Part shown: piece after piece, positions 8,760-55,557 of the stretch
How the letters are laid out: each line of letters starts with the position of its first letter
How positions within the stretch are numbered: the stretch's first letter is position 1
NCBI GenBank assembly: GCA_040285825.1
Contig: JAUPSS010000002.1
Coordinates: forward strand, 2,914,001 to 2,978,000
From: Eukaryota sp. TZLM1-RC
Lineage: Eukaryota > Protista > Metamonada: BaSk clade
DNA length: 64,000 nt
Direction: 5' to 3'
Translations under genes and position numbers: made by a program
The notes under the pieces: generated by a model
Told to the model about the DNA's origin: nothing
Database searches by the model: none
What the model saw: the letters and a program-made list of their open reading frames with translations, nothing else

Positions 8760-9406
8760 ATTTATTGAATTTGTACACTTAATTAAATTAAATCAGAACT
8801 AATGGGACGACTATCAATGAACCAAGATTTCCTCTACAAAATCTTGATCTGCTTGCTGTCTAGCTAAAGCTTCTCTTATTCGATTGAAAAACCGAGGTAA
8901 TCTATTAATAATGGCAAATTGAATCCGTGACCGCCATAAAAAAATATCAAATCTTTTCATTGTTTTTTCTTGCACCATTTTTTGGAAGTCATTCAAAAAT
9001 GTTTCTGCTTCATCTGATAATCTTCCATTTATCGGAAATGGGAAGGCAATAAAAACCAGCTGTGTACTTCTATCGGCATTAGCCTCTTCAATATCTTTAT
9101 CATATTTTGTATGTTTCTCTTTTGCTTTATAATCAAGAGCAGTCACAGGATTAAGTTTTCTTCTGTGAACCAAAGTATCATTTGCAACATTACATGAGAC
9201 AAAGTCAACAATAGCTTCAGAATTATCAATCCAATCACAGTATACATCACCTCTATCATCAGAACCAAAATTATTCAGAGAAAGTGTTTCCTTCAGCAGG
9301 GGCTCTTTGATACACGATATTCTTGCAGATTGTGCCATATTGAAAACAGTGTCTCTAACAGTATCATGTATTGAAAAACGATAAGTTATCAATTTAGAGC
9401 AATTTA
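8760..9406 (-). mobile_element. 5'-truncated CRE-like non-LTR retrotransposon, family B
   Basis: HDTVRD, EP, RGDVYCD..D, KAKEK..KY RLE motifs; near-identical to the 3' part of 42821-44240. Confidence 0.85.
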
Positions 9407-9579
9407 TTGATTTTTTATTCTTTTGAATAAATTGAATTGAATTGGGGTAAAAACACTAAGACTTTATAGGCTAGATGAAGGGACCTCATCTCCAAAATCG
9501 AGAGAATATGTTGTGATGATACCTTGTGAACACTACTAACTCTCCCTACTAATGTCACTTATTCAACTTTGGAGCACTT

Positions 9580-20759: not shown

Positions 20760-21688
20760 TTAAACCAACATTTATTGAACATGCACACTTAATTAAATTA
20801 ATTCATAACTAATGGGACAAATACCATTGAACCAAGATCTCCTCTATATAATCTTGATCTGCTTGCTGTTTAGCAAAAGCTTTTCTTATTCGATTGAAAA
20901 ATCGAGGTAATCTATTAACAATGGCAAATTGAATCCGAGAACGCCATAAAAAAATATCAAATCTTTTCATTGTTTTTTCTTGAACCATTTTTTGGAAGTC
21001 ATTCAAAAAAAATTCTGCTTCAACTGATAATCTTCCGTTTATCGAAAATGGGAAAGCGATAAAAACTAGCTATGTATTTCTACCAGTATTAGCTACTTCA
21101 ATATCTTTATCATATCTTCTATGTTTTTCTTTTGCTTTAAAATCAGGAGCACTTACAGGATTAAGTTTTCTTCTGTGAACCAAAGTATCGTTTGCAACAT
21201 TACATGAGAGAGACAAAGTCAACAATAGCTTCAGAGTTATCAATCCAATCACAGTATACATCACCTCTATCATCAGAACCAAAATTATTCAGAGAAAATG
21301 TTTCCTTCAGCATAGGCTCTTGGATACACGATATTCTTGCAGTTTGTGCCATATTCAAAACAGTGTCTCTAACAGCATCATGTAATGAAGAACGATAAGT
21401 TATCAATTTCGAACAATTCTAAGCATGTCGCAAAGTGAGCTGAGGTGAATTCGAACAAATACATTTTTCTTTTGATAATAATTGATTAATGGGGATATTC
21501 AAATATAATCTCATTTTTGTTACAAATGCTTCATTAGTGGCACACAATCCAAATCTTCGTGGTACAATGGTTACAAAAAGTGAAGAATCTGATGACTGGT
21601 TTTCACAAACACCCTTTTCCAATAACAATGAGTCAAGATCTTGATTTAAAACAGCCGAGCTGCATAAATTATTATAAAGATCACTATA
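20760..21688 (-). mobile_element. 5'-truncated family-B CRE-like retrotransposon with a 12-bp TSD
   Basis: Frameshifted CICS..H..C knuckle and RLE motifs; GATAGTCAATAT repeated at 20748-20759 and 21689-21700. Confidence 0.88.
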
Positions 21689-24505: not shown

Positions 24506-24779
24506 ATCAGAATAATAGTTGATTAAACCTGATGAAGGTGGTCTGTCAATTTCTCCACTATATCCAACAAAATTGATTAATCAAGGTTCTTTTAAATTCT
24601 TTAAACTAATCAAAAATGAATATTCTGTGGAAGTAGCTTCTTTTCCATGGTGGAATCAGTATGCAGCTGAAATATATTTGATCGACTTTCTTCGTGATGT
24701 TAGTTTTGTATATTCATAAATTATAAAATAAAATTAACACAAAATTAACAAATGATATGTTTTTGGTTGAAAAGTAACC

Positions 24780-26118
24780 CAAAATTTGAACAATGTTTTG
24801 AGATCTTGTGCTCCTTCCATAGCATTAGATTTTTGTCGTTCTTTTAATTCATTGAGAACAGAATTTTTTGCTGATTTATTGGATGTAGAACCAAGAATGT
24901 TGAAAAGTCACCTATTTTCTTCAGCAAATTTGGGGGGTATTGGATTTACTAAATCTTCAATTTTGTGTCAATCAGCATTCTTGGGTGGTGGCAAAAATTT
25001 TATTTATGAATTTTCTCGTAGATTTCCTGATGATTCTCATCTGTTAGTTCCCAATTGCAGTCCCTATTTGTATGAGTTATCCTGTGAACTTGAAAAATCG
25101 CCGCCACAAATTTGGACCAAATGTTTTCCTCAATCAATTCAAGAAATTCCAAACCGATCTCTATTTAATTTACAGTTTTGCTGTAAAAAGCTTCAACAAA
25201 AATTGTCAAAGATTTTTGAAAGCTTGGATTTTGATGTTAGACTTGGCTTGGCCAAGAAAAAGAATCCCGCTTTTGCAAATCTTTTGCAAGATAGGTGTGA
25301 CAGTACTTCTTCTGCCTTAGTAACAACAATTCCACAAGTTTTTAGTACTCTCTTATCCGATTCTGCTTGGACTCTGAATATGGGATTTCGTTCCTTTATC
25401 TGGCCTGATAATTTACCTCATAATTTAATTTGTAAATGTTCTCGAGAAATTACAACTACTCATTTGTTAAATTGTAAACATTTTATTACTTTTAGAAGCA
25501 AGGTTCATGATGCTGTAAGAGACCAGTTATATTGTATGTGTAAATCTCATAGAATTGAATCCTTCTTGGAACCTCTGTTGTCAAATCTGTTTGATGCTGA
25601 AGATGATTTTCATAAGAATAATAGAGGTGATGTCATATTACCTGGATTAGATGGAAGCTTCATTTTATTGGATGTAATGTCTGTTGATCCTTGTAATGCC
25701 TCAAATGAAAGGCTTGTTATTTCTGAAATTCATAATCCCTTTTCAAATGCTGAAAATTTTAAATTCAAAAAATACAATGAACCTTTGTCCAAATTGGCCA
25801 TTCTACAGCATGCAAAATACAATTTGTATCCATTTGTATTTTCCCTTTTTGGTTCATTTGCACCAACTGCTTTACGTTTTTTGGATGATTTTGAAATGAT
25901 TGTAAAGAGAAGAACTGGCAGAAATTTCAACAGATTGTTTTGGCAAAATAGAATTGTGTTTTCTATTTTTAAGGGGATGTTGAAGATGGTTTCTGATGCT
26001 TTGCTTTCTCTTGGATCTCACTATGAGAGAGTTGCATCTAGTGTTTTTGTTTTGGGAGAGATGGATTTTTTAGATGTTGATTTATAGGTTTTGAATAAAA
26101 TTAAATTTAAATAAAAAA
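24780..26118 (+). mobile_element. 5'-truncated CRE-like retrotransposon, family C (433-aa uninterrupted ORF remnant)
   Basis: Post-RT VLRSCAP and GGIG motifs, CKC..H..C knuckle, HDAVRD, RGD..D, AE..K.KKY; AATAAA and an A-rich tail. Confidence 0.88.
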
Positions 26119-26479
26119 ATGTTTTTCAATGAATACTGAATTCTTGAGAGTGGAACTAATTTATCTGTAGGAGTCATTCGTGCACTTACCATTCGAGGTC
26201 TATTAATTAATCCTGTATGGTATCTTCTATATGCAGTTTTCGTTATAATAGGTCTGTGCTGTTTCAACATTCTATAAAATACAGTTCCACTCATTTGTTG
26301 ATTACCTCTTCTGACAAGATAAATAGCACGAGCTAACCACATTTTATCTGAATTCTCTAAACAGTTAATGCTAAACCATCAGTATAATGTCCATGGAGAA
26401 TGTCATATTACCAGAATACATGCAAAAGAACAAAGAGGGCGGATCATTTTCCAATTTTAATATAAAGGAGTTTTATAAA

Positions 26480-28760: not shown

Positions 28761-28833
28761 ACTTCAATAAACAAGGATGACCCAAAGAAAAGCGGAAAAT
28801 GGAATAACAAAATTCTTTTTTTTAAAAAAAAAC

Positions 28834-29720
28834 TTTTTTTTTCAAAAATTTAATTTTATTCTAAACCTATAAATCAACATCTAAAAAATCCATCTCTCCC
28901 AAAACAAAAACACTAGATGCAACTCTCTCATAGTGAGATCCAAGAGAAAGCAAAGCATCAGAAACCATCTTCAACATCCCCTTAAAAATAGAAAACACAA
29001 TTCTATTTTGCCAAAACAATCTGTTGACATTTCTGCCAGTTCTTCTCTTTACAATCATTTCAAAATCATCCAAAAACGTAAAGCAGTTGGTGCAAGTGAA
29101 CCAAAAAGGGAAAATACAAATGGATACAAATTGTATTTTGCATGCTGTAGACTGGCCAATTTGGACAAAGGTTCATTGTATTTTTGAATTTAAAATTTTC
29201 AGCATTTGAAAGGGGATTATGAATTTCAGAATTAACAAGCCTTTCATTTGAGGCATTACAAGGATCAACAGACATCACATCCAATAAAATGAAGCTTCCA
29301 TCTAATCCAGGTAATATGACATCACCTCTATTATTCTTATGAAAATCATTTTCAGCATCAAACAGATTTGACAACAAAGGTTCCAAGAAGGATTCAATTC
29401 TATGAGATTTACACATACAATATAACTGGTCTCTTACAGCATCATGAACCTTGCTTCTAAAAGTAATAAAATGTTTACAATTTAACAAATGAGTAGTTGT
29501 AATTTCTCGAGAACATTTACAAATTAAATTATGAGGTAAATTATCAGGCCAGATAAAGGAACGAAATCTCATATTCAGAGTCCAAGCAGAATCGGATAAG
29601 AGAGTACCATAAACTTGTGGAATTGTTGTTACTAAGGCAGAAGAAGTACTGTCACACATATCTTGTAGAAGATTTGCAAAAGCGGGATTCTTTTTCTTGG
29701 CCAAGCCAAGTCTAACATCA
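28834..29720 (-). mobile_element. 5'-truncated family-C retrotransposon inserted in the 3' tail of a family-A copy
   Basis: Near-identical to 25232-26100; a T7-A8/9-CT motif is repeated on both flanks. Confidence 0.85.
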
Positions 29721-29739
29721 TTAAAATTTTTTTAAAAAA

Positions 29740-30727
29740 AACTGGATTATTTATTGAGATAAAAATAACCATCTAGAATTCAATATCCTCCAAACAAGCG
29801 TCACTATTACTGAACCTACTCACAGCATTACGTTCATATTCTACACCGATAGCTAAAAGTGCCTTTGAAATCATTGTAGGAATAGACTTGAAAATGCAAA
29901 AAACAATTCTATTTAACCAGAAAGTGGAGTTCATTGTTTTACCAGACCTAATCAGTAACACTTTTTTAAAATTTTCCAAAAAGTGCAAGCCTGAAGGTCC
30001 AATATTGCCAAAAAGAGAAATTGCAAACGGCACAAACAGATATTTCACATGTTCCACTCTACCTAACTGAGCCAAAGGTTCTTCATATTTTTTTATCTTC
30101 TTTTTTTCGGCGTAAGATAACGGCGAATCAGCGGAATACACTAAACGAGCAGCAGAATTTTTGCAAACATCAACTGAGACAACATCTACAACATTGACAA
30201 CACCATCGATCCCTGGAGCTACTCAGTCTGCCCTTCTTTTACCAAAAGAATCATCAGCTTGATCTGAAGACAGCTTATGTACTGATAGCTCAATAAATGC
30301 CTCCATATTGAAACTTTTGCACATGGCATATAATTGATCACGAACTGAGTCATGAACAATTGAGCAAAAAGTTATAAAATACTTACAGTTTAAAATATGG
30401 GAAAGCGTAACAACACTCTTGCAGCGACAAATTAAATCATTTGGTAATGAACAAGGCCATAGAAAACATCTCATTCTCATTGCAGTGGTCCATTGGTGAT
30501 CATTAAGTAGAAGGCCATAAATGTTGGGAATTTGGGAGATTAGGCAACATGAACAACTGTCTTCAAGATCAATCAAAAAGTTTGCAAAAACGGGTTTTTT
30601 CCCTTAGCCAAGCTGAGACGTACAATATAATCCAAGTTTTCTAAAACTTTCAAGATTTTTTTCTGCAATTTTGCAAAAGTCAGTGGTAAGGAGAGCAAGT
30701 TTCTTGAAGGAAGTTCCACAATATCAG
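29740..30727 (-). mobile_element. 5'-truncated family-A CRE-like retrotransposon
   Basis: Near-identical to 1-1070; CRC..H..C, HDSVRD, RRAD, AEKKKIKKY. Confidence 0.85.
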
Positions 30728-31437
30728 GTTATCAGGTTCCACATTAAAATTCTTGAAATACAAATAGATTGGTAGAGAAGCTTCTCACTTTAATTCGAGA
30801 TACTGGGATACTGTGATCTTCCAATCTTGCAGATTTATCAAGTGTTTCTGTTGTACATGAACCCGCACCTATTGAAAGAGATGGCAAACTAATGATGGAA
30901 ATAATTATTACTTGGCGTCATCAGACATTTTCTACTTCAATATCGTTCAATCCCTATAAGAAAAGTGCATTTGAGACGGGTGGCCAGGGATGTTTACATG
31001 CATTGTCATGGAACACTGTTTGTGAAGAATTGTTCAAGCAAGCACTTGATTTTTACCACAGAAAATAGTTTAGAGACCAACACAATTAGGGTGAATTGTA
31101 TAGACTAGCAAGTTACTTATAGTGGCACAATTTAAATAATTGTAGAATACTGTGATTGCTTGTTTCAGTTTTATATTTTTTAGAATGGACCATGCCAAAC
31201 CTTGGTCTTTTCTTTTCACTCTTCCTTATCATATTAAAACCCACTAAAAAGTGGACCTTGTCTTTATCAAATTAATCATGTTTACATTCGAATACTTACA
31301 CTAATACACTTTGGCCAAACGAATAACGACAATGCTAAACAGTTGTAATTATCAGTAAATACAACCCAACTATTATAATTGTCGAGCTCAAAATGCCACG
31401 TCATCATTATTGCCACAAAACCATGCTTTTATTGCCA

Positions 31438-32405
31438 CTATTCCATTGGAGCTTCCTCACTATTATTACTACTCTCGTTCGTTTCCTCCTTTTCCTCTCC
31501 TTCTTCAAACTCTTCTTTCAACTTTCTTTCCAACCGAATCTGGGACTCTCTGTTCAGAATAACATCATGAATAGCAGTGAGTGAACGCCCTATCAAACCC
31601 ATAAGTACAGTGAGTTGGTTTTCATTGGTGAGTTGAGCAAGGTCTTCTTTAACAGCGGTGCTCAACAAAGGTAGGTCGTATAACACTTCTTGTAAAAGAT
31701 TAACAATTTCAGATTTAGGTTTGGGTGTCTTTTCTAAATATTCACATACAATTTCTAAATTTCGAGAAAGAGCAGTTAAACCATTGATCCTCCCCTCCCT
31801 CATGGTACTGAGGTCTGAGATTTCTACTCCTTTAACGTCCCGGAGTAAGTGTTCAATACCAATTTCTTCAGCAATTTGTTGTCCCATTCTGGTCTGAATA
31901 GCGTCAAAGGTTTCAGTTGGTTGTTCACCAGGTGTGCGAGAGGTAACTTGTTTGATGAATGCACGAGCAGGGAACTCTTTCGTCTCCATAACAGTAACTA
32001 AAAGGTAAACAGGATCGATCGGAAGTGACATAAGTCTATGTACAAGTTTGTGGATGGCCAAATCAAGGGCCACTGGAGAAGGACCGGTTGAGTACCAGCC
32101 CACGATCTGTTCTTTGACTGGGATGAGTGTAGGAGAAGAATAACGATACTATTGACTTTTTGTTGCATTTTAAACATTGTTTCTGCAAACTGATGATCGA
32201 ACATCCAGACTTTGGGATCGCGGGGATTTTCTTCAAATGGGACTGCAAAGCAATTTGTTATATCCACAACTCCTCTGTTGACTGTGCCAAGAAGAAGGCC
32301 ACATACACGCTGTTTTGGACCGCGAGAAACACGTTTGTGGTGATCTGATACTGAAAGGAGGACAAGAGGATGTACAATAGCAAGTGATGGAGATGGAGAT
32401 GTCAT
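31438..32405 (-). CDS. RPN8: 26S proteasome lid subunit Rpn8 (PSMD7); one 32-nt intron at 32118-32149
   Basis: VHPLVLLSVSDH..RVCGLLLG..NCFAVPFEE..WMFDH; the splice gives KVNIKEQIVGWYSTGP; also AEEIGIEHLLRDV. Confidence 0.95.
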
Positions 32406-34667
32406 TGAAACAGATGATGTCTTGAACAAGAAATAAGTGTCCTTTTTACACAGATGGACAGAGTTTTTGAGAAGTGGAAGATTTTCTCCTTGATTCCTTT
32501 GTCAACCTTGACTCTCTGCAGGTTTTTCGGTCTATCTCCACCATTTACATGTGCTTCCATCACTGCCAACATATTAAGCGAAGCATTTCGATCTCTATTC
32601 CACAAACTTTCGCATGATTTACACGTGGTAAGCCCGTGACGAATAGACATCTCATGCCTCTTCCATGGCCTAGGATTTCTGCACCATCGGAATGTTTCAA
32701 CTGTTTTCTCCGCTTTCTTACAGTTGAAACAACAGCAACTGGTTCGAAACTCATCAATCAAAAAGACCGTATAACCACCCTTTTTAAATAGAATTCTCAA
32801 CCCTTTTACTTTGCTAGGTTCTTTGAATTTCATGTGTTTTTGCTGTTCCCAGTCTCCGATTCCAATAACTACTTGGCTAGGATCACCAATTACTGATTTG
32901 AGTCTATGAATCATTATTGCCTCAGATCTTGTGCGATTAATCTCCGCCCACCATCTTAGCTTCCTTAATATTTTTTGATGATAGACTTCACCAACAATAC
33001 TATTCACAAAATTCTTTTGTTTAATATACTCCATAAGTCTATCAAACCTGCTGCTTTTGGAATTGAATTGGGATAAAGTTGCTTCCCATTCTGCTACAGA
33101 TTTAGTCGTGTGATCATTGTTTCTCAAATTGAATGAGTAATCAATTTCGTGGGGACTATTGATTTCTTGAGGTACTTCACCTCTTAATAAACTAATTGTT
33201 CTTTCAGTCATTTGATTAATTATACTGCTGCTTAAATCCATTCTTTGTTGTTGCTCTTCATATGGTTCATAATTGGATAGATCAATTCCTCTACCAGTGG
33301 AGTCACTTATTGTGATAAGAGTGTCATTCCATATGATGACTCTTATTCTTTTGAATTTGGAACTTTTCGACTCAAATCTTCATTGATTTTGAGTGTACCT
33401 GAAATGAACGTATTTATCTCTTTCAGGTTTTTTTGACTGAGTCATTCCAGTAGCTAAATTTGCAGAAAAATAGAGTAGATCAGATTTCCCTGGATCAGCA
33501 GCTGCAAGGGTCATATCTTGGAATTCAGAAGGATTGATACTAGGGTCATCAATATATTTTTCTTTATCTTTCATTTCTTTTGCAGTTTCTTTGTACTTTT
33601 TCAAGTCCATTCTAGATTGAATGAATTTACTGCTACCCCATCAGTCTCGATACTAGACATGATGTACTTGGAATTTACTGAATAAAGTTTAGTGTTTTTA
33701 ATCTCGTCCATTTTTAAAAAGGTATTCCATAAAACCAAATCACCAGCTTGGTCATTGCATTGGTAGGACGACCTTGGACCAAGAATGTCCTTGATTTGGA
33801 CAAAGAACAAGTCCAATAACCTTGTCTTGTCAATTCTGCTATACGAGGGAATACAAGAATTCTTCAAAGGCAGAGCATGAAAGAGTTTGCTCTCCTCATT
33901 TTCTGGAAAATTATAAATATAAAACAATGATCTCAAATACAAATTTGATTTTGACGAAAAACAAATTTTGAATACTTATCCCTTTTTGGAACTACTGGAA
34001 AGTAAATGAGGGATCTGGTCATTAATGAAAAGCGAAGTAATTGATGAGACTTTGTTTCTCATTGCAGAAGTTTCGCCATCACCATCTCTACATCCTTCTA
34101 GAAGGAGGGATTTAATTTTGTTGATGAATGATGAGAAGTTTTTCTTATCTTGCTTTTTCAGGACGTTGTTGTTTCTCTTTACATCATAAAAAGCATCAAC
34201 AAACCGATCCAAATAATCAAAGTAATGCTCCTGGATGTTATTTTTGAAATTCACAACCAGTTTGTCAATTGTGTAATACAAAATATTACTGATTGCTTTT
34301 TTTGATTAAACTTTTGGAACAAGTTTTTCTCTCAAGTGTTGGTGATAGAATTCCAACAACGGGGCACAACGAGGATTTTGCTAAGCTGTTTTTGTCCTTG
34401 CGTTAAGGGAACTTCCCTCCTCGCTTTAGGACGTGACCACAAGAAAAGCTTCACGAAATAATTGGGTTTCAATTTTTGGTAAAATAGCATTTGGGTTTAA
34501 GTCAAAAAGATGCAAATAATAACCACAAATGAATTCTAACCAACAATAGAAATTTCCTGACACCTAATTACTGCCTCATCGATCACTTCAATCATTTTCG
34601 GATCTCGGATGAAATTTTTGATGCTATCCTTATAACCATCATAAGGTGTATGTTTAACAGTTTCCAT
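32402..34667 (-). pseudogene. Fanzor1 (eukaryotic TnpB-like RNA-guided nuclease), full length but disrupted by frameshifts and a stop
   Basis: N-terminal KDSIKNFIRD..IDEAVIRC..LPKIE; KNNIQEHYFDYLDRFV; PLKNSCIPSY.RID; SIETDGVAV; RuvC-I AADPGKSDLL; YTQNQ*R; IGDW..KEPSK; RuvC-II IDEFRTSCCCFNC; NPRPW; HGLTTCKSC; RuvC-III WNRDRNASLNM. Confidence 0.9.
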
Positions 34668-34680
34668 GAATTGGTCATTG

Positions 34681-35399
34681 TTAAAAAAAATTAAATAATT
34701 TCATGATTAAATCTGTATCCCTCAAACAATAAACTGCAACTGCAGTTCTTCTTTGGGATAAGAAAAAATCTGAGAAGGGATCATCAACTTGAACCTTCCA
34801 ATACTTTGCAATATATTGAGGATCAAGGTCAATTGTACTCTCCCCTAATAAAGTTTAAGAAACTGTTTAGTTTGAGTAGTTGGTAATAATTTGTAAAATT
34901 ACTACAAGTATCAACAACAAATCGACCAACAATTAAGGGGTTCACTAGGACCGATTTCACACTTAAAAAGTCCTCATTTTCAGAACGTTTCATAATATGT
35001 GGGATGTCACATTTGAGAATATTGAAACCACATATTATATAAGGATGACAAGTTTCTAATGATTTTTAAATGAACTTAGCAATTCTTTTGTCAGAGGAAT
35101 GATGATATGAAGTCATATTTTTATCTTCAACTTTGCAATAATGTTCATTTCTGCTTGTTGATTTTTCTACAAGATCACAAAAAACAAAGATTTAATTCAA
35201 TCTGTTCTCGAGTGAAAATATAAGGAACTGAATTTGCAACAGTCGTTCTTGTAGATTGACAGTAAAAGATGGAATGTTCCCTTGCAGAAATAACAATTAT
35301 TGCATCCTCATCACTGAGCTTTTTACCCAACACCAAAGTTTCAATATCAAAATTTAATATTCTGAGAATAAATTGTGTTTTGACATTTGATGGTGTCAT
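34681..35399 (-). pseudogene. Family-B DNA polymerase 3'-5' exonuclease domain (delta/zeta/viral type), decayed, with no polymerase domain following
   Basis: Manual translation across frameshifts: ExoI LRILNFDIET..DAIIVIS (about 35366), ExoII HPYIICGFNILKCDIPHIMKR (35047-34985), IVGRFVVD, ExoIII RRTAVAVYCLRDTDLIMKL (YCLRD at 34731-34717). Confidence 0.82.
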
Positions 35400-35599
35400 T
35401 AAGGGTATATATATCGAATCAGCGGATTCTCATTGAAAAGTGTTTTTACACGTTTCAAAGGTCTGCTCAATACATCGGCTCGTCTTTTTCTGATGGTTTT
35501 ATTTACAGAGGAGCATTTCTTTGTCTCAAATGATTTTCATTCATTGTCAACACAGCTATAAAAACATCTTTTGTCTTGATTGACAAAATATTTAATATG

Positions 35600-36077
35600 A
35601 GCTGAATCAATTGAATTGAGCTGATTTGACAAAAACAAATTGATCATTCTTTTTGCAAACAATATGGTGAATATTCTACAATTATACAAATTAAATTGAA
35701 CAAATTCAAATTATATTTTGACTGATATTGACTCCAAATTTTCAAAAATTTTGAATTAATTTTGTGATGTTGTTCTTCATTATGACGAAGACTATCAAAC
35801 ACAAATGCTTTTACTGTTCTGGATTTGATCCAGAATGCAACAAGTACCCAATGTTGCCCAATGGTAAATTGTTCGTCATCAGATGCAATCAAATTTGATT
35901 GATGGAATGCATCATTATAGGGTAGAAGAATCAATGTATTTTCTTCGTTGCCATAATTGATCAATTGTGACCAAAATCCTCTTGAACAAATCCCCTAAAA
36001 AACAATAGGGCTGATGTGATGGACCAAACAAGTAATCGAATCAGTGATTTGTTCACCATCTAACCAACTGTGTTTGA
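35600..36077 (-). pseudogene. Ulp1/SENP (peptidase C48)-like protease domain, decayed and interrupted by the hAT insertion
   Basis: SWLDGEQITDSI, ILLPYN, GQHWVLVAF..FDSL and, after a frameshift, VQFNLYNCRIF..FAK (Q-x-N-x-x-D/N-C-G motif); His/Asp/Cys triad present. Confidence 0.75.
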
Positions 36078-37707
36078 CAGGGATAACTAAAGTGGTAAAG
36101 TACTTTAAGCACTTTACTTTACTTAACTTTACTTTAAAGAATCTTTTTTTGATAAAGTAGAGTCATCATTATTTGGTTTGACAAACATGTTGTACATTTT
36201 AATAGAGAACATTCTATTTTCGAAATCCTCTTCAAGTAAGGTAACTTTTCAATTCACCATAAGATAACAAAACCTAACATTTATTCAGAAACTCATCAAA
36301 AACTGATTGAAAAATTAAGTATGTGGTGGATGAGCACCAACACTCTTCTACTCATGGATCTCAATTACATCTTCATCGGATGACACCCCGCTACTTACTT
36401 CCAACTCATCAGGTTCATTGGGGACATCTGCACCATTCAGCCAGTCCCAATACTTCTTTGAACTACTTCTTCCTCCTCTGACGTAATGCTTCACCATCAC
36501 ACTATCTGTTGCCCTCTGACTTTCCATTTTGTTTCTTTCTTGTGTACATACAATACGAAAGTCCGACCAGTTTCTTTCAGCTTCTGAGTTTGATGTCACC
36601 ATACTTAACAGTCTCACTGCCAGGTTAGATAGCTCAGTGTTACCGCCATGAACATACCACCATTCATGTGCTACCATTCTGGAAGCTATGTTGAATAGTT
36701 CACTGTGTTCGAATAAATCTGACCCTGCAACATAACAAGACCATTGATGAATGATGTCTGCCTTTTTTGCCCGTCCAAATTGTTCTTCAATCACTCGAAA
36801 CAAAGCATCACGACACTCTTGAAATTGTTGTTCTGTAATTAAATCCCTAAATTCAGGATCCAAACAAAAAGCCGCCCGATGATAGTCGTTGAAGATTTGC
36901 AAAATTCTGAATTCAAATCTCTGAAGAAGTAGACTGTGTTCTTCTTCTGATATAAATGATAGTTGAGTGAGATCCATTCTTTCTTTTTCCATTTGTAGAT
37001 AGCGATACAGTTTGCCCATAATTGGTGTCAAACTATCAATTCTTTGCATGATATTGACAAGTGGTTTCATGAAGTCCACCAATTTTTCCACTTTTGTCCA
37101 ATAGTTTTCATTGGCTAAAATTCTCTTTACGTCACAGAATTCCTGACGTAAACCCCGTTGGAGTTGATGGAGTCTGTGGTGTAAAAGGAGTAAGTGGAGA
37201 AGGACTTGAAAAGGACGGAAGTGCTTGTCTAGGAGCTGGACTATTGATACTGGAAGCTCGTCTTTTGCGTTGTCTAGAATGTGTAGCTAGATACACTCGT
37301 AAGTCTGCAACCTTCTTACCATTGTTACTCTCAGGACACCCTATTTGGTTGCATAACGGTACCTGTCTTTTAGGTAGTAGGTCAGGTACATAATGCCCTT
37401 CCATTGCCCATCGGTTGACAGAATAGACCTCATCGCATAATAGACATTGAAAGCGCGCACAAGTCTTTGAAACAACTTCGTTGACTTGACAGACATTCGT
37501 CCAAGCCTCACAAGGGAGTGAAGTCATTAACAAAAGAAAATATATAAGAAAAATGAAGTGAGAAAGGGGTGGAGAGTAAAGAAAGAAGCGTTCACTACTT
37601 TATACCACTTTAGCCAATTTTAGAGCTTAAAGCTTAAAGTTTAAAGTAAAGCTTAAAGTAAATAAAGTACTTTAATTTCATTTTTTGGACCACTTTAGTC
37701 ATCCCTG
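36078..37707 (-). mobile_element. Internally deleted hAT DNA transposon (1630 bp)
   Basis: 19-bp TIR CAGGGAT(A/G)ACTAAAGTGGT; perfect 8-bp TSD GTGTTTGA (36070-36077, 37708-37715); BED-finger N-terminus (37527-37132) joined out of frame to the hAT dimerisation C-terminus (WWYVHG..LAVRLLS..SNSEAERNWS); subterminal TAAAGT repeats. Confidence 0.95.
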
Positions 37708-39734
37708 GTGTTTGACATCATCACTTTGTTGCCCTTCACCTGATAAATTAATTTTTTTAACTGGAATATTTATTGAGAAATATAGAGTATTTTTTTAAAA
37801 ATATATATTGTTATTATAAAAAGGAATTCAATTGATATAATCTTTAGTAAAAAAATTTTAAAATTTTTTTATCAGATTGGTCATCAATCTTTCCAGAATA
37901 AACACAAAATGAATTGCTCCCTTCTTTATAGAGGCTGTGGGTGGAAACAATGGTGTGTGAAACACATACAGCTTCCAGGTTCGTGCTCCAGACACAACCA
38001 GCAAATTCATAGATAATGTGTTGTCTTGAACGATTTATAAAATGTTTATTAATCAATAATGGAACAATTAATTAAAGAACAATTTTGAAAAACTTCATGA
38101 TGGACTACTTGGTCACATTGACCCTTCTCAACCAAAAAAAGAGGAAGAGTCAATCTGACCAAGTAGTCTATTTTCAACCAAATGGTAAGGAGAGTCTTCA
38201 TGAGAAACAGTTCCCTTGTTACATTTGGTTGAACAAGAACACACCTGTGAAGGTGGAATCTCAGGAGGGCTGGAAATGAGCTCCCAGGAGCGCTCAATGG
38301 AAGCTTGCTCCTGGATGGTTTCACTCAGCAGTGAATCCATATAATTCTGAATCCTCTTTGGACCAGGGGGTGCGTCTGACGTGTAGTGAATATATTGAGC
38401 TTATTTATCAAATTTTGCACTTGTGGGAGGTTTTCACTTTCTCATTCATTTCACCAACATTCACCAGCAATCTCAACGACTATCTGACATTTTTGTTATA
38501 TTAGACGATATCTTCAGGTTCAAGTCATCCACAACCCTTCGCAACTCTGCGAAGACTGCCATCAGTTCTTTGGCTTTACTGAAACTGCCTACCATTGTAG
38601 TGTGTGTTACAAAAACTAGCAACATAGCCATCCTGAGTTAGTAGCAGGCACTTCTCCCACCCGTACGGAGTCTTCGCCGCCGGAAGCTGTCTCCCTTTCT
38701 CAAATACTGTTTCGTCCATTGAAAGGCAGGGAAAATCTGTTTACTTCCTCTTCCAAATGCCTGGTCTAGTAGTCATTGTTGTTAGTGTCCAAAATGTAAA
38801 AATAACCAAATTACAGTCTGTGAGTGCACTTCACTAAACCCCATGGTGTTGATTGTGCTTTTTCTTCTTGTGAATCCTTCTGTTCATCCCTGGATTCTTT
38901 TGATTAAATAAATCAATTTCTTGTTTTAACTTCGCAATGATGTCATTGTTATAATTTGAGCAATTAATAATCAAATCGCTTTAGAAGGGATTGACTATCA
39001 GTTATCTATACCATTTTTTGCAGATTAGATTCTGTCCACAATAATGTTGTTACTGATGATGGCGTCCTATGACTATTCTTCACAGCACAATCATGGACTG
39101 ATTCAGCTAAGAGTATTCTGATCAATGGAATCTTTTGCCACTAGAACAGGAAATTGTGATGCTAAAAACAACAAAATCAAGAAATGTTTTGTATATTGTG
39201 TACTATTTCAGTTGAACTTTACCATTGTCGTATTTTTGATAATAATGCGTATGTTATTTGACAGTTCAGAGTAAATAATTTCTGTTCTGTGAATATTGAC
39301 TAGGAGAAAATCTTTTAAAATTTCGTGAGCCTTTATTCGAACATGATAAATTCTGACTGATTTCAATTACATTTCTATTGATGTTTCAAGAAAAGACTAC
39401 AACAACCTGAACAATTAAAACTACAATTAATGCCATGTATTTTTGATTTAATTCGATAAGCTACAGAAACACAATTCAGCCACGTGTTGCAATACTTTCA
39501 ATTGTAAAGTGTGAGATACTCAGTCTTGACCCAAAACACTTTTATCTCAAGTCGATTTCAGATAATTTTGAATCTCCAATTGAAAGAAATCATGATATCA
39601 TGTTATGGAGTTTTGACAGCAACACTGCCACATTCAACGTGACGATGATGTTATCGACAACATTGTGCGATTTCACTTTTGGTATAAAATTGCATGAAAT
39701 AGTCATCGTGGTTTTCCTTTTTCTCCTTTTCCTA

Positions 39735-40225
39735 AGTTTGTATTCCCCCATTTTGCCCCTCATCTAAGTGAAGACCGAAGTTTGCAGCTACTCAGGTAGA
39801 AAGATCCATCCCGGTGTCGGTAGCAGGACTGTCCGTGCTGACGGTAAGATTTTTGTATTCGATTCTCACAAAACCCTTGCTCACTATCAACACCGATGGA
39901 ACCCACGTAAGCACGGATGGACTCTTGCTTACCGTAAGGATCATAAGAAGGAGGCCGAAATTACTGTTGGTAAACGCGCCAGAAGAAAGGTAGTCAAGGT
40001 CCAACGTGCTGTTGTTGGTGCATCTGTAGAGGAAATCCTCCGTAGACAAAGAGAATCTAAGGAAGAAAGAGTTGCTCAACGTGAAAAGGCTGTCCGGTAT
40101 GATGTTTCCCTCCTCTCTCTTATTTTAGCAGTGCCAAGGAAGCTAAGGAAGCCAAAATGGCAAAGAAGGCCCAAAAGGCTGCTCAACAAGCCCAATCCGG
40201 CAAACCACTCAAAACCAGACGTTAA
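39735..40225 (+). CDS. RPL24: 60S ribosomal protein L24 (eL24); introns at 39736-39768 (inside the ATG) and 40097-40128
   Basis: MKTEVCSYSGRKIHPG..NPRKHGWTLAYRKDHKK..QRAVVGAS; the second splice restores the EKAVRSAKEAK Lys/Ala-rich tail. Confidence 0.95.
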
Positions 40226-41952: not shown

Positions 41953-44348
41953 CACTGTTGGCAGTAATTAGTCTCACTGCCAAATTAGTCTCACTGCAAA
42001 ATTAGTCTGAGTGAGACTAATTTTGTCCAATGACCATCCAAAATCGTTTTTGTGAGACTAATTTTGTCCTGAGTTTCATAAACATTTTTCCAGTACTTTT
42101 TTCGAAAACTTATAAAATTTTGTACCAATCATTTTCTATTCATTTTTTCTCTTACTAATGAACGGTCTTTTCTCGGATTCTCCTCTCGTACAATCTTTTG
42201 CACGGGCTCAATGCTCTAGCACGGCTCACACTACACCTCCTTCTGCAGAAGTAGATACCTCCACTCCTATCGTCTTACCACTTCCTGAAATACAACACCA
42301 TGATGAAAACGCTGTGTTGTCTCCCACTGCAGGAAGGAAGTGGTGGCTGAAATCAACTCCAAGAGGAATGAGAATGGCATGTCTTACGCCAAAGTAGCGA
42401 TGATGCGCTGTGGATTGGGTTTGGACGATGTTGGTAAATGGAGTGTTAAATATCTGAGTCCCCAACTTCAAGCAATTATTTCCAAATACAATGCAAACTT
42501 CAAAGGAGAAAAGCCTCCCGGTTGTTATGAAGATATCTGGGAAGATGTGAGTGACGACGATGATTTCACTGAAGTACAGGGATTCGACGATAATTCAGAG
42601 GAGGAAATTCAAGTAACCGAAGATTTCATAACACAACAGGAGATTACTAAGCTGAAGGATGAAGAAGAGGATGAATGTTATATTTTAGAATAGATTGAGT
42701 GTTTTTTATTGATAAAGATGTTGTTTGTCTGGTGGTCAAAGGAAATAAGGTCGAGACAAAATTAGTCTCACTGCAAAATTAGTCTCAGTACAGAATTAGT
42801 CTCACTGCAAAATTAGTCTGAATGATGAATTTAGATATAAAAAAACACATCAAATTTACCATTATAAGACTGTGTTTTAGTTCCAATTTTAATCATATAT
42901 TTCGATCTACAAATCCTCTCGTCACTAGACCTTTGGCTCAAAAGTTTAATGAGTTACGTGCAAAAGTTCTGTCTCAATTACTGGGATGTAAAATGTTTCA
43001 AATTGCAGATCATGCTTACCTTAGTCCACATTATGGTGGTTTAGGGTGGACGAAGGCTTCTATTCTTACCTCGTGTGCTTTTGTTGGTGGATGCAGAAAT
43101 GCAATCTTTGAGTTTTCCGAAAGATTTGCAGATTGGGAAGATTTATTGATGGCAACGCAAAGTTCCACTGTTTTTGCATTAAATGAAGAAATTTCAAGAA
43201 TTGATGTAGAAAAATGGGGTCGATGTTTTCCCCAATCATTCAATGGCAATATTCAAGAAAAAAATGTTTTAAATTTGAAGTACACTCTTCGAACATTACA
43301 GAAAAGATTGACTGGAATGTATGAAAAAGATCTTTATAATAATATTTGCAGCTCGGCTGTTTTAAATCAAGATCTTCACTCATTGTTATTGGAAAAGGGT
43401 GTTTGTGAAAACAAGGCGTCAGATTCTTCACTTTTTGTAACCATTGTACCACGAAGATTTGGATTGTGGGCCACTAATGAAGCATTTGTAACAAAAATGA
43501 GATTATATTTGAACATTCCCATTAACCAATTATTATCAAAAGAAAAATGTATTTGTTCGAATTCACCTCGACTCACTTTGCGCCATGCTCTAAATTGCTC
43601 TAAATTGATAACTTATCGTTCTTCATTACATGATGCTGTTAGAGACACTGTTTTCAATATGGCACAAACTGCAAGGATATCGTGTATCAAAGAGCCCCTG
43701 CTGAAGGAAACACTTTCTCTGAATAATTTTGGTTCTGATGATAGAGGTGATGTATACTGTGATTGGATTGATAATTCTGAAGCTATTGTTGACTTTGTCT
43801 CATGTAATGTTGCAAACGATACTTTGGTTCACAGAAAAAAACTTAATCCTGTGACTGCTCTTGATTTTAAAGCAAAAGAGAAACATAGAAAATATGATAA
43901 AGAAATTGAAGATGCAAATGTCGATAGAAATACACAGCTGGTTTTTATTGCTTTCCCATTTTCGATAAATGGAAGATTGTCAGTTGAAGCAGAAACTTTT
44001 TTGGATGACTTCCAAAAAATGGTGAAAGAAAAAACAATGAAAAGATTTGATATTTTTTTATGGCGTTCACGGATTCAATTTGCCATTATTAATAGATTAC
44101 CGCGGTTTTTCAATCGAATTAGAGAAGCTTTAGCTAGACAGCAAGCAAATCAAGATTTTGTAGAGGAAATCTTGGTTTAATGATAGTCGTCCCATTAGTT
44201 ATGATTTAATTTAATCAAGTGTGCAAATTTAATAAATACGATTAATTTCTCACTGCAAAATTAGTCTGAGTGAGACTAATATTGTCCGGAAAGCACAAAC
44301 AATTCAGTACAAAATTAGTCTGAGTGAGACCAATTACTGCCAACAGTG
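41953..44348 (+). mobile_element. Internally deleted pogo/Tc1-mariner-like TIR element carrying a nested LINE
   Basis: TA TSD; 26-bp TIR CACTGTTGGCAGTAATT(A/G)GTCTCACT; many subterminal AAATTAGTCT(CACTGC/GAGTGAG) repeats; residual ORF NGMSYAKVAMMRCGLGLD..W..LSPQLQAIISKY resembles the C-terminus of pogo-like transposases; DDE core absent. Confidence 0.8.
42821..44240 (+). mobile_element. 5'-truncated family-B CRE-like retrotransposon (452-aa uninterrupted ORF remnant)
   Basis: IRLCF..HIFRSTNP, GGLG, CICS..H..C, HDAVRD, RGDVYCD, KAKEK..KY; flanked by the duplicated CTCACTGCAAAATTAGTCTG (42801-42820, 44249-44268). Confidence 0.9.
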
Positions 44349-46206: not shown

Positions 46207-46794
46207 CTAACCCAGCATACTCCACAACTTGGAATTCTTTAACAAATCTGGCTCTGGAGCTACTGTACGTTTTCCTTTTCTTGGTCGATCTCCGCCTGTT
46301 CTTTTTCTTGATCCAGACGTGCGTTTCCTTGGAACGGAGGTGACTTCTGGTAGAGATGAGAAATCACCATTAGGAGAAAGAGGTATTCTGACAGATGACG
46401 CGGTGGATAACACAGACTCATCATCCAGTGGTTCATCAGGTAAAATCATGGGAGAAGTATTGGTAGACATATCTCGTTGATCTATAAATGCATCAGTGAA
46501 TGCATCACTCTTGCCTAGGGTAACGATTTGGGATTGTTTCTCGGCAAAAACATTTTCAATGTTGTCTATACGTTGCGTAATGGACTCTGTGAAGGATTGA
46601 AGACGATCACACTCAAATTTGTCTGCACGTTGAACAAGGGATTCTGTCAAGGATTGGAGGCGATCACACTCAGCTCGTAGACGTTTGTTTTCACAATTGA
46701 CTGAGTTGCACTTATGAGAGAGAACATGTTCTGTGTAAATAGCAAGATGTGCAGAGAAGTTGAGGAAGACCCTCATATCGAATGTAGAAGACAT
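46207..46794 (-). CDS. Hypothetical protein, 195 aa, with a duplicated coiled-coil segment and a basic NLS-like tail
   Basis: Intact ATG-started ORF; internal repeat ECDRLQS(L/F)TES(L/I)xQR twice; PRKRTSGSRKRTGGDRPRKGKR. Confidence 0.6.
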   Translation of the reverse strand: MSSTFDMRVFLNFSAHLAIYTEHVLSHKCNSVNCENKRLRAECDRLQSLTESLVQRADKFECDRLQSFTESITQRIDNIENVFAEKQSQIVTLGKSDAFTDAFIDQRDMSTNTSPMILPDEPLDDESVLSTASSVRIPLSPNGDFSSLPEVTSVPRKRTSGSRKRTGGDRPRKGKRTVAPEPDLLKNSKLWSMLG

Positions 46795-46879
46795 CGGCTA
46801 ATAGCACAAAAATGTCAAATAGTAGCAACCCGTTGAGATTACTGAAGATGAAGATGAATCAAGTTGATCTTTTCAATAC

Positions 46880-50189: not shown

Positions 50190-51542
50190 CTATAGTAATG
50201 AACAACATCCAATGGTCACTGTCTCATGATCATTATTGACTTCTCCTTTATTGGAATTTGGCCAAATTGAACCGTTATGTCTTATAGCATTATGTCCTGA
50301 GCAATGAGCTGGATGATCAGGTTTGTTTTCTATACAATTTTCATCAGGATCAACTTCCTCCAATTCCACAACAACCTCATGTTCTCCAATCACACTTTGA
50401 AGATTCTGCTTGACTTCATCTAACTCTTGAAATTGATTGAAGTCACCCATCACCGCTTTGGCTAATAAACCACCCATAGCTACATCATTTGCCGGGTCCA
50501 GTATGGGCATAATTGAAAAGTGATGTCCAATACTGCGGAAAACGTCATAGACTGAATTAAGATGGACAAGTCTACCAGTGGGAACGACCTTGTCAATGCA
50601 AATTCCCCTTGTTTGTATTGATTGAAAGACAACTACTAATTCAGAACGAAACTTTTTGAGTAAATTTTTCATCAAATGTTGCATTTTTTCCCAAGAAAAT
50701 GGTAGATCAAGGTCGTAACCTCGAATTAAGTCATCTACTACAATTTCTTCAAGGTAACACAACGTTTTTACTTTGGAGCAAGCTTTCCAAAGTTTAACCT
50801 TGGATTTCTCAGTCAGTTGGTCCTTCATTTGTTCAGGAACGTTCTCCACGCAATAATAGTAGATTTTCTCATCAATGTTCCTTCCTCCAAACCAAAATTC
50901 ATGCTCAACCAACACTTTGAACTGTCCTTCCTTATGTTGGAACACCACCAAGTTGGTCACTGCTTCACCTACGTCAATAATGGCGACTGTCTCTTCTCTA
51001 GAACTATCTAATGATTTGTACAAAAATGAGTGAATCAGGGCAAGTGTTGTGGGGACGAAACATTCCACTGGCAGTTTGTTTTCGCTAAAAGCCGTTTCCA
51101 ACATCTTCTTGTTTTGAGCAAGAGCCTTGGGAAGAACAATTCTGATTCTTAACGTAGATTTTGGCAATAAAGCGATCAATTCATCCTTGATGTGACTAAC
51201 AACAAGGTTGAGCATTTCCTGATGTGAAAAGGTCTTGCATTCGTCAGCTGAGTTGATCCTAAAGAAGAACTTGTTGTCTCTAACAGTGACATTGTTGGCT
51301 AACGTAGAATTTGGAGGGAGAACACCATCGATCAGATGGGTAACAGCAACGAAGGAGTTGATTGCATGCTTTGCTACCTTCCTTTCGGCATCTTGACCCA
51401 TAAACGTTTCTCCACGATCATGAACTAGCAAATTTGAAAGGAAATTCTGTCCATTTTTGAGTTGGAGAACCTTGAGCTGATTGTCATGCTGCAATGCCAA
51501 AGTAATGGCACTAGCACCAATGTCTATGGAGAGGAGTAACAT
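50190..51542 (-). CDS. Degenerate Hsp70-like nucleotide-binding-domain protein (probable pseudo-ATPase) with C-terminal CC-SLL (CaaX)
   Basis: SIDIGAS, AIIDVGEA, FGGRNIDEKI, KL..ACSKVK and DPANDVAMGG indicate an actin-like/Hsp70 fold; NEPTA and GGGT motifs lost; ends IGCCSLL. Confidence 0.75.
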   Translation of the reverse strand: MLLLSIDIGASAITLALQHDNQLKVLQLKNGQNFLSNLLVHDRGETFMGQDAERKVAKHAINSFVAVTHLIDGVLPPNSTLANNVTVRDNKFFFRINSADECKTFSHQEMLNLVVSHIKDELIALLPKSTLRIRIVLPKALAQNKKMLETAFSENKLPVECFVPTTLALIHSFLYKSLDSSREETVAIIDVGEAVTNLVVFQHKEGQFKVLVEHEFWFGGRNIDEKIYYYCVENVPEQMKDQLTEKSKVKLWKACSKVKTLCYLEEIVVDDLIRGYDLDLPFSWEKMQHLMKNLLKKFRSELVVVFQSIQTRGICIDKVVPTGRLVHLNSVYDVFRSIGHHFSIMPILDPANDVAMGGLLAKAVMGDFNQFQELDEVKQNLQSVIGEHEVVVELEEVDPDENCIENKPDHPAHCSGHNAIRHNGSIWPNSNKGEVNNDHETVTIGCCSLL

Positions 51543-51617
51543 TGATGATACCTAAATGTGGTGATCTCTTTTTGGTGATATCGTAAAATTTAACAGTTGG
51601 TCATCTTGCTCGTTTCC

Positions 51618-53216
51618 ATGTCCATAACACTGGGAATAGACTTGGGTACAACCAACACGTGTGTAGCTGTTCATCGGCAGAAGCGTTCACCTAATGGAGG
51701 AATGGTGTATTCCACAGATGTACTTACTGACAGAAGTTCGGGACAGAAACTAATTCCATCAATGGTCGCATTTCACAAAGGACAAGAGAGTGTTGGAGTT
51801 CAAGCTAAGGAAGGTCGCAAGAAGAATGCGGTAAACACTGTTTTTGAAGCCAAAAGGTTTATTGGCAGACGTTACTCGGATCGAGTCGTTCAGACAGCCA
51901 CTGAAACCACCAGATATCCTTTCAAGATCACTAAAGATGGAGTGTTTTCCAACAATGTAGCTTTTGAAGTAACCCATCAAAACCAAAAAATCAAATTGAG
52001 ACCAGAAGAAGTTGCTGCAAAGGTGCTTTCTTATGTTCGCGACTATGCAAGTCATGCTCTAGGTGTTCCATCAATCACCAAGGCCGTCATCACAGTTCCC
52101 GCATATTTTGAAGACTCTCAACGCCAAGCAACAATGGCTGCTGCCAGAGCTGCTGGTTTCCAAGAGGTTCGCTTGATCAATGAACCAACAGCAGCTGCAT
52201 TAGCACTGAAGGAGGAAGATCCAACGACAATTGGTAAACGTGTTTTAGTGTTTGACTTTGGAGGTGGAACGTTCGATGTTTCCATTGTAAAAATTGAGAG
52301 GGAAGATGTCACAGTCTTGGGAACTCACGGAGCTACAGACCTCGGGGGAGCAGATGTGGATCATGTCCTTATGCAATTTTGTGAGAAGAATTGGGCCGCA
52401 GATTCAGATACCAATGATGAACCTACTGGTAGAAAGAAGGAAATGCTCAGAACGGCTATTGAACAGGCAAAATGTGCCCTTTCTGGTAGATCTGAAACTG
52501 AAATTGAAGTGGAAAACTTTGCTGGAGATGAAGACTTGAGGGTTTTGCTTACTCGAAATCAACTGGACTCACTATGTCAAACCCTATACGCTAGAACAAT
52601 GTCAGTTGTTGATGAGCTTTTGAGAGACTTGAAGCTCAAAGCGTCACAAATTGATGTAGTACAATTAGTTGGAGGGTCAAGTAGGATCCTTAAGGTTCAG
52701 GAGCTTTTGAACAAAAAGTTTCCATTAAAGGTGCGGCGTACTGTGAATCCAGACGAGTCGGTGGCTGCTGGGGCCAGTGTTCTGAGTTTGCACTTGCTTA
52801 ACGATGTGAACCCCCATAGTTTGGGTATAAGGGTGGTTTCTAAGTCACCAGTTTCTGAAGTTAATACAATGAGTGTCCTTATCCCACGGAACTCTCGTGT
52901 CCCAGGCCGGTTCTCTGGTACCTACCACACTATTCACGACAATCAAACAAGGATAAGTGTGGATGTTTATCAAGGCGAGGCATCAATTGTGTCACTCAAT
53001 CACTTGCTAGACAAGTTTACTATCACGGATCTTCCCAAATTGCCGGCAGGCAAAGCTAGTATTGAGGTATCAATGATTGTGGATTCCGATGGCATTCTCC
53101 ATGTAACTGCAACAGATCGGTCTTCTTCCTCAAACACAGACACCATCAAAATTGAAAAGATCAGAAACCAGTTCAACATTAGCAAGGGAGAGCTTGCTCC
53201 ATCAAAGCACAGTTAA
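51618..53216 (+). CDS. Divergent Hsp70 lacking the helical lid and EEVD (copy 1)
   Basis: GIDLGTT, EAKRFIG, TVPAYF, INEPTAAAL, DFGGGTFDVS, VGGSSRI, NPDE, DVNPHSLGI, VYQGE, DSDGILHVTA; stops just after SBD-beta. Confidence 0.92.
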   Translation: MSITLGIDLGTTNTCVAVHRQKRSPNGGMVYSTDVLTDRSSGQKLIPSMVAFHKGQESVGVQAKEGRKKNAVNTVFEAKRFIGRRYSDRVVQTATETTRYPFKITKDGVFSNNVAFEVTHQNQKIKLRPEEVAAKVLSYVRDYASHALGVPSITKAVITVPAYFEDSQRQATMAAARAAGFQEVRLINEPTAAALALKEEDPTTIGKRVLVFDFGGGTFDVSIVKIEREDVTVLGTHGATDLGGADVDHVLMQFCEKNWAADSDTNDEPTGRKKEMLRTAIEQAKCALSGRSETEIEVENFAGDEDLRVLLTRNQLDSLCQTLYARTMSVVDELLRDLKLKASQIDVVQLVGGSSRILKVQELLNKKFPLKVRRTVNPDESVAAGASVLSLHLLNDVNPHSLGIRVVSKSPVSEVNTMSVLIPRNSRVPGRFSGTYHTIHDNQTRISVDVYQGEASIVSLNHLLDKFTITDLPKLPAGKASIEVSMIVDSDGILHVTATDRSSSSNTDTIKIEKIRNQFNISKGELAPSKHS

Positions 53217-53883
53217 GAGTTGTACAGTCACCATTCAATGTGGATAAAAGTGCTTTGTTTCAATTTACGTGGGTTTTTGTACATGGAATTGTTTTTGTAC
53301 ATGCAACTATTTATATTTTATATTTATATTTTATATTTTATTCTAAATATAAGATCTTTTAAGAGTCAATGACACCTATATTATTTCGTAAATCAAGCCA
53401 ACCCAATTTGAGTGCTTTTGTTAATTGTGGGTTGTGCTTTTTTTAACCCAACTTGTGGGTTCTATTTTATGCAAAAAATACTTTTCCTAAGATTTTGACA
53501 TCCTATGCCCCTTCAATAAAACTGCCAATATCAAAGACTAGTTTGTTTTCCAAGATTATTTTCAACCAGGATAGTTTTTATTGATTTTTCTCAGATGTCA
53601 AGGTCTAACATAAAGAGTTGTAAATTTCTGTTCAAAACGTGTTAAAAATGCCTTTTGGGAAATTTTCTGAATCTTTAGCAATTAATTGTATTGATGTAGG
53701 GGAGGCAAATTTTGAGGATTCGGAGCTTTAGTTGTGTATTTGATGATTTTTGATTCCTTATTCGCTAAATTCATAAATTTTTTTAAAAAACGTGTAAAGT
53801 GTTATAGCGTTGCTTTTTAGTTATCTGCTATGATCGAAATGACAAGATTCTACAAAATAAATGTTGTGTTTACTTACCACCTC

Positions 53884-55482: not shown

Positions 55483-55557
55483 GGAAACAAGCAAGATGAC
55501 CAACTGTTAAATTTTACGATATCACCAAAAAGAGATCACCACATTTAGGTATCATCA

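Follow-up and report, generated by a model that had tools for sequence, protein, structure and literature searches.

Does the minus strand of this locus hold neighbouring fragments of separate genes, or the remains of one gene for a single fused protein? The question is raised by a 64,000-nt stretch of contig JAUPSS010000002.1 of Eukaryota sp. TZLM1-RC (the window), in which a cysteine protease, a DNA polymerase exonuclease and a Fanzor1 nuclease follow one another. The minus strand of the window carries a decayed Fanzor1 element, which extends from ~32445 to at least 38379 and is split by a later hAT insertion. Judging from the alignment of its copies, the ancestral gene was very probably one open frame of ~1,440 aa, encoding an N-terminal region, the protease, a linker, the exonuclease and Fanzor1. 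The explanation that we consider best overall is a decayed, multi-copy, fused Fanzor1 element whose exonuclease would trim cut 3' ends for repair copying; taken as a whole, we give it about an even chance.

Structure of the decayed element

The domain order on the minus strand, from 38379 to ~32500, is N-terminal region, cysteine protease, linker, exonuclease and Fanzor. Without the hAT the tract comprises 4,262 nt, or ~1,420 codons, and ~1,440 if two deletions of the window copy are allowed for. The other copies of the element were three NCBI gene models of the same organism, 75-82% identical to the window, and contigs from two sequencing runs of one sample, of which 64 and 167 pieces aligned to the window. 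The contigs are diverged element copies, mostly 80-95% alike to the window. Because gene models and contigs may share the window's genome, we treated them as other copies and not as independent lineages. Alignment to these copies and to a Fanzor profile revealed 15 frameshifts and 9 stops in the window tract, so the window copy is dead, and more broken than the initial annotation had described. The features are the following.

37716..38379, minus strand: N-terminal region of ~210 aa, colinear with residues 2-211 of the gene model KAL0215306.1
37799-37761, minus strand: candidate 39-nt intron, missing in KAL0215306.1; it contains a stop in frame and its last letters are CAG
36070..37715, minus strand: later hAT insertion with its 8-bp target duplication (hAT itself 36078-37707, internally deleted, with 19-bp inverted ends)
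35641..36069, minus strand: C48/Ulp1 cysteine protease (H35853, D35796, Q35698, C35680)
35391..35640, minus strand: coding linker, open and colinear in KAL0215306.1, with a bipartite nuclear-localisation-like motif at 35491-35444
34691..35390, minus strand: family-B polymerase 3'-5' exonuclease (ExoI D35348/E35342, ExoII D35008, ExoIII Y34731/D34719), with no palm
34668..34690, minus strand: exonuclease-Fanzor junction with a run of eight T (34683-34690), one base out of frame in the window copy
32504..34667, minus strand: full-length Fanzor1 (profile match) with 2 frameshifts, 5 stops and an insertion of ~73 aa after the bridge helix
32445..32460, minus strand: probable right end of the element, where the omega-RNA scaffold would finish, with a GTGTAAA motif; host sequence beyond 32445 would serve as the guide

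The hAT sits at the start of the protease, and contigs 99-100% alike imply that it was recently active. One frameshift was noted in it, near 37135. We rejected the hAT as the element's own transposase because it interrupts the gene and is absent from KAL0215306.1. An extent of 32402..38780, with a frame starting at the protease, had been proposed initially. The part from ~32445 to at least 38379 stood, the evidence did not reach 38480-38780, and the frame begins at 38379, ~220 codons before the protease.

The three enzymes and the N-terminal region

The protease retains the motifs WLDGEQI (36066), HWVL (35853), FDSL (35799) and QFNLYNC (35698), and the His-Asp-Cys triad with the oxyanion Gln is present in both the window and KAL0215306.1. 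Residues 205-385 of KAL0215306.1 corresponded to Peptidase_C48 by ESM Atlas features (0.94, 193/256 shared), with 29/30 feature matches falling in the C48 set, and the top ESM Atlas structure for these residues had a template-modelling (TM) score of 0.70; the feature and structure matches count as one source. Pfam hmmscan and a PDB sequence search found no match for the protease, with either the window piece or KAL0215306.1.

The N-terminal region had no family in the ESM Atlas (best 0.85). It contains a Gly-Gly-like motif at 37746-37732, just before the protease, of what we take to be the adenain type. This site was the sole [MIL]xGG motif in the sequences scanned; the match is weak and was noted post hoc. 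The only stretch missing from KAL0215306.1 relative to the window was an intron-like one of 13 codons. These 39 nt, at 37761-37799, resemble a spliceosomal intron that has lost a recognisable 5' site through decay of the window copy. We also noted a hairpin at 38100-38171 in the N-terminal coding region, with 28-bp arms and a z of -7.0 (0/200 shuffles as stable). An AlphaFold2 model of KAL0215306.1 alone reached a predicted local distance difference test (pLDDT) value of 29 and was not used.

In the exonuclease, the ExoI (FDIET, 35351), ExoII (35026) and ExoIII (YCLRD, 34731) motifs are in place with all four carboxylates. The pattern of PF03104, namely D-x-E in ExoI, N-x3-D in ExoII and Y-x3-D in ExoIII, was found together with a profile match. 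The window fragment scored weakly against Pfam (E-value 0.013), and a PDB sequence search with it returned nothing useful. The less broken copy KAL0218717.1 matched DNA_pol_B_exo1 with an E-value of 6.7e-8 (32.7 bits against a curated cut-off of 23), and aligned to yeast polymerase delta through ExoIII (E-value 0.017); it has His in place of the ExoIII Tyr. A search of 1.84 billion representatives gave 40 matches, which were two element copies and 38 family-B polymerase proteins, 27-43% identical. All 38 outside relatives carry the exonuclease family and 36 of them the PF00136 polymerase family; archaeal-type enzymes and one delta-type enzyme are included. None of the 38 carries a TnpB or C48 domain, or the protein-primed family-B polymerase (PolB) family. 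The borders of the domain are clean, with its start ~10 aa before ExoI and its end 8 aa after ExoIII. No match to a PolB palm was found in the six frames of the window, and the element does not encode a whole family-B polymerase.

The Fanzor part begins at Met 34667 and keeps the RuvC residues D33496, E32752 and D32593 and the zinc finger. A 644-position profile made from 19 relatives aligned to it from position 11 to position 634, and the TNB domain matched with an E-value of 1.6e-6. A split RuvC with DPG, a shifted Glu six residues before the zinc finger, and RuvC-III RD were all present, as in Fanzor1. PDB matches were to Fanzor1 structures only (3/3 for the profile, 2/2 for the window piece). 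The predicted protein thus appears closer to Fanzor1 than to Fanzor2/TnpB over its full length. Its C-terminal part is ~50% identical to giant-virus-type Fanzor proteins, and the nearest Fanzors are of this type. The insertion of ~73 aa (33120-33340, minus strand) is missing in the 19 profile relatives and present in the contigs of other copies.

The catalytic residues of all three enzymes are kept, though the exonuclease is just 27-43% identical to its nearest outside relatives. All motifs quoted for them in the initial annotation were located at their places, and the full-length Fanzor1 with three RuvC acidic residues was borne out. The domain calls now lie beyond chance, through the Fanzor TNB match, the Pfam match of the KAL0218717.1 exonuclease and the ESM Atlas C48 match of KAL0215306.1.

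Junctions and the ancestral frame

The copies tile the frame. KAL0215306.1, with 491 aa, covers the N-terminal region, the Ulp1 protease and the linker and reaches ExoI, without the hAT. It aligned to the window over 490 aa (383/467 identical), gap-free at the protease-linker and linker-ExoI junctions. KAL0218717.1 spans ExoII and ExoIII and then ends at the window's junction stop codon. In KAL0223747.1 a single frame covers ExoII and ExoIII, then six further residues, then the first 44 residues of Fanzor. The contigs have sense codons at four of the window stops (35539, 34857, 34308 and 33382), including the linker TGA at 35539, which is CGA in 2/2 contigs; together with the open frame in KAL0215306.1, this agrees with the earlier suggestion that the linker was coding. 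The shift at 34537, a lesion by comparison with homologues, is mended in a contig. A contig gap at 35393-35418 was unbridged, and the junction there is covered by KAL0215306.1.

The exonuclease-Fanzor junction is in frame in 3/5 distinct copies. Besides KAL0223747.1, each run has a contig that is one base shorter at 34683, which restores the frame, and in which the lesion at 34537 is mended as well; a second contig of one run lacks four bases at 34689 and is likewise in frame. The proposal that one base fewer in the run at 34683-34690 would join the two enzymes was therefore realised in other copies. For each domain junction, one or more of the other copies has an open frame, as a single protease-exonuclease-Fanzor frame would demand. 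Two observations would have spoken against that proposal, namely Fanzor copies with unrelated upstream sequence and exonuclease copies running into a polymerase. Neither occurred: the lack of palm motifs after ExoIII held for the window, and KAL0223747.1 continues into Fanzor. One ancestral protein of ~1,440 aa is most likely because the copies tile the frame, the exonuclease-Fanzor junction is in frame in three of five copies, and related Fanzors have no long upstream frame.

The alternative of a two-part gene deserves consideration here. In that case the protease-exonuclease would end at the stop, translation of Fanzor would start at its own Met or depend on the ribosome shifting by +1 at the U-run plus UAA, and the in-frame copies would be derived. 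The frame closes at one and the same codon in the window and in KAL0218717.1, and Met 34667 is the start position of stand-alone Fanzors, as this alternative predicts. Set against this are the three distinct in-frame copies and the T-run itself, an ordinary site of slippage and assembly error. The distance from stop to Met is also only 14 nt, leaving no room for a promoter before the Fanzor Met. We consider a two-part gene improbable.

Several points nonetheless weigh against our interpretation of one fused, homing protein. No intact copy was seen, and the frame was tiled from decayed ones; KAL0215306.1, KAL0218717.1 and KAL0223747.1 are gene models, known as predicted proteins; 2/5 copies, the window and KAL0218717.1, share the junction stop; the contig lacking four bases is a single 151-nt record at depth 2; and the contig differences considered at the junctions leave 45 substitutions out of account. 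The omega-RNA region is ~55 nt shorter than those of relatives and folds no better than shuffles (z +1.08), and a profile of the relatives' right ends gave no match there. Homing alone cannot account for dispersal to new loci, and no evidence of activity or expression was seen.

Element ends, copies and flanks

Among 116 non-redundant related Fanzor loci, 81 have GTGTAAA after RuvC-III, at a median of 216 nt downstream. Conservation drops from ~0.9 to ~0.4 right after the motif, which is why we take it to mark the right end. In the window GTGTAAA ends at 32445, 158 nt after RuvC-III. A looser two-part motif (55/116 loci) had its single window match ending at 32445, and for a stricter pattern, fitted to the window itself, 0.06 matches would be expected by chance. 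The bin holding 32445 is also where contig cover stops; one contig adds 6 nt at 32451. Giant-virus-type Fanzor1 loci have a strongly conserved right end ~200-260 nt after RuvC-III, and in 41/116 loci an upstream TTTACAC could pair with GTGTAAA. Rfam gave only a chance mir-77 match.

The left end lies at or beyond 38379, and contig cover thins out near 38480. A motif taken from the left ends of viral Fanzor loci located no left end. No Pfam match, to a transposase or otherwise, was found in the six frames of 38380-39760, nor were convincing inverted ends or a target duplication found for the element; a 13-bp inverted match at 32478/39302 does not extend and was treated as chance. None of the hallmarks of a cut-and-paste or Helitron transposon (transposase or Rep-helicase, inverted ends or duplication) was thus found for the element. 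It may still be a non-autonomous member of a family of Fanzor-carrying transposons. Between the element and RpL24, decayed coding-like sequence without a Pfam match was noted at 38400-39750 (minus strand), which may be a 5' part of the element or a host pseudogene; a 58-nt piece of it resembles 46787-46844.

Copies occur at different host loci. The right end adjoins Rpn8 in the window and a RING-HSP70 gene in the gene model KAL0206682.1, which matches to 32453 and then continues as a different host gene, indicating separate insertions. KAL0206682.1 joins the last 58 residues of the same Fanzor family to the RING-HSP70-like gene, likely by annotation read-through at another insertion site. Contig joints at 32536-33629, 35265-38392 and 35922-38396, with short sides and low depth, suggest internally deleted element derivatives. 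The flanks of the window copy are host genes, namely a JAB/MPN gene starting at 32405, presumably Rpn8-type, and RpL24 near 39768. Pattern scans of viral contigs and metagenomes revealed no close relatives.

These locations bear on another explanation, an endogenous giant virus or Polinton remnant in which Fanzor inserted into a PolB gene, close to the alternative raised in the initial annotation. The giant-virus-type nearest Fanzors would fit, and a protease ahead of an exonuclease recalls the TP-vOTU-EXO-PALM order of Polintons (PMC11161782; here and below, what we say of cited papers extends to the parts available to us). However, the window has no palm, the protease is C48 and not OTU, and the exonuclease relatives are RNA-primed PolBs. 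Host genes form the immediate flanks, no viral left-end motif lies between ExoIII and the Fanzor start, and the unit recurs at other loci. The lack of a palm, the host flanks and the recurrence weaken the alternative as first put, and we regard a viral remnant as very unlikely.

Comparison with known systems

We compared 160 viral and metagenomic related-Fanzor loci, taking the best 80 from each of two sets, one of 397 and one of at least 342. In the 136 open reading frames that include a Fanzor N-terminus, the longest open stretch before the start was 74 aa. No exonuclease match was found in the flanks of these loci; one weak protease-side match (E-value 0.009, 43 aa, downstream) was set aside. 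Exonuclease or C48 annotation was found in 0/25 long Fanzor homologues. The fusion was not found in the literature searched, which covered the available parts of PMC10530073, PMC10432273, PMC3627910, PMC10691335 and bioRxiv 2023.08.09.552727 among others, most subscription papers lying outside. Nor was it found in the supplements of PMC10530073, PMC10432273 and PMC3627910, save two PMC3627910 files and one scanned PMC10432273 file. The architecture was thus not found in the searches made, and the fusion is known from one lineage.

The element resembles known Fanzor1 (SpuFz1, 8GKH; Parasitella Fanzor1, 9CF0; giant-virus proteins of 620-720 aa) in the DPG of RuvC-I, the shifted RuvC-II Glu, the zinc finger, RuvC-III and the right-end motif. 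It differs in ~700 extra N-terminal residues with two enzymes and the 73-aa internal insertion, and in that neither transposase nor inverted ends were found. Fanzor1 is carried by the eukaryotic transposons Helitron2, Mariner, MuDR, IS4-like and Sola (PMC3627910). As in these, the repeat that carries Fanzor1 is dispersed and has the nuclease at its right end; the partners are transposases there, and a protease and exonuclease in the same frame here. The Polinton protein-primed PolB (PMC11161782) is likewise a single polypeptide in which a cysteine protease immediately precedes a family-B exonuclease. In contrast, the element has Ulp1 instead of OTU, an RNA-primed PolB type, no palm, and Fanzor at the place of the polymerase. 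The Polinton set (protein-primed PolB with palm, vOTU, integrase and capsid genes) was not found. Transposon-borne ubiquitin-like proteases (ULPs) are known, and those fused to Mutator-like elements (MULEs) are likewise C48 proteases on a mobile element (PMC12903978). Transposon-borne ULPs are fused to a transposase or reverse transcriptase, whereas the Ulp1 of the element is fused to the exonuclease-Fanzor.

The protease and polymerase fragments might instead be passive cargo, caught by chance in frame and spread unused. Every copy seen is decayed and the fusion was found in only one lineage, which would fit. Chance capture accounts poorly for two enzymes with clean borders, complete catalytic sets and a linker with a nuclear-localisation-like motif, in one frame over ~700 codons. 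We think passive cargo unlikely. NeSL and KAONASHI are further mobile elements with an Ulp1 protease.

Proposed mechanism

For SpuFz1, cleavage lies 16-17 nt from the target-adjacent motif (TAM) on the non-target strand and 20-21 nt from it on the target strand, and a cut-and-copy role has been proposed for Fanzors, whose biological role in hosts is open (PMC10432273). In the element, the right-end omega-RNA would take its guide from the host flank, so that the nuclease would cut the empty allele ~16-21 nt from the insertion point. The cut would leave a TAM-side 3' tail of ~16 nt of right-flank DNA, mismatched to the filled allele. That tail would have to go before repair could copy the element, and a tethered proofreading exonuclease, which suits such a substrate, could remove it. 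The T4 polymerase 3'-5' exonuclease (43Exo) affects the efficiency of intron homing (PMC2988022), an analogous case of an off-site-cutting nuclease helped by a family-B 3'-5' exonuclease. It differs in that the T4 exonuclease belongs to the replicative polymerase and acts in trans, and the nuclease is not RNA-guided. On this view, trimming of Fanzor-cut 3' ends for repair copying is a plausible role for the exonuclease, though we place it a little short of an even chance.

The protease would most likely remove SUMO, and as a deSUMOylase would be predicted to relieve SUMO-dependent silencing or repair control. Removal of the N-terminal region may be a further task of the protease. The self-processing initially envisaged was unsupported for the joins of protease, exonuclease and Fanzor, which contain no Gly-Gly site. 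Since the six-residue join of exonuclease and Fanzor is among them, these two probably remain one chain. We tentatively picture a homing element without its own transposase, in which one protein cuts the empty allele, trims the end and removes SUMO marks; this fuller picture is possible, and somewhat less secure than the trimming role. New sites were likely reached via a transposase in trans.

The same fusion could also serve otherwise, with the exonuclease trimming the omega-RNA 3' end, and so the guide length, or degrading excised element DNA. Its attachment to Fanzor by only six residues would suit this, and for DEDDy exonucleases of other mobile elements a role in processing the 3' ends of RNA or single-stranded DNA has been suggested (PMC6431247). 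The 38 outside relatives point the other way, all carrying the family-B polymerase exonuclease domain, and we rate such a role as unlikely as passive cargo. A family-B polymerase exonuclease acts on DNA 3' ends.

Other features of the window

Fragments at 70-1030, 8760-9450, 20770-21680, 24771-26126, 28830-30730, 42822-44240 and 63140-64000 belong to a few dispersed-repeat families. Their open reading frames resemble what we take to be the C-terminal restriction-like endonuclease part of non-LTR (long terminal repeat) retrotransposons; the two fragments tested had no Pfam match. Tandem 17-bp units flank the copy at 42822. The region 50190-58392 is an inverted duplication with four HSP70-like genes, one of which is extended by a long coiled coil.

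Implications

The element adds the polymerase proofreading domain as a free module, and its protease-exonuclease order would have been reached independently of Polintons. Exonucleases have been fused to the compact Cas12f to raise editing (exoCasMINI, PMC12337685), and the element looks like a natural precedent for an exonuclease-fused programmable nuclease. That Fanzor is naturally fused to a 3'-5' exonuclease suggests that Fanzors serve their hosts in the processing of ends and in homologous copying.

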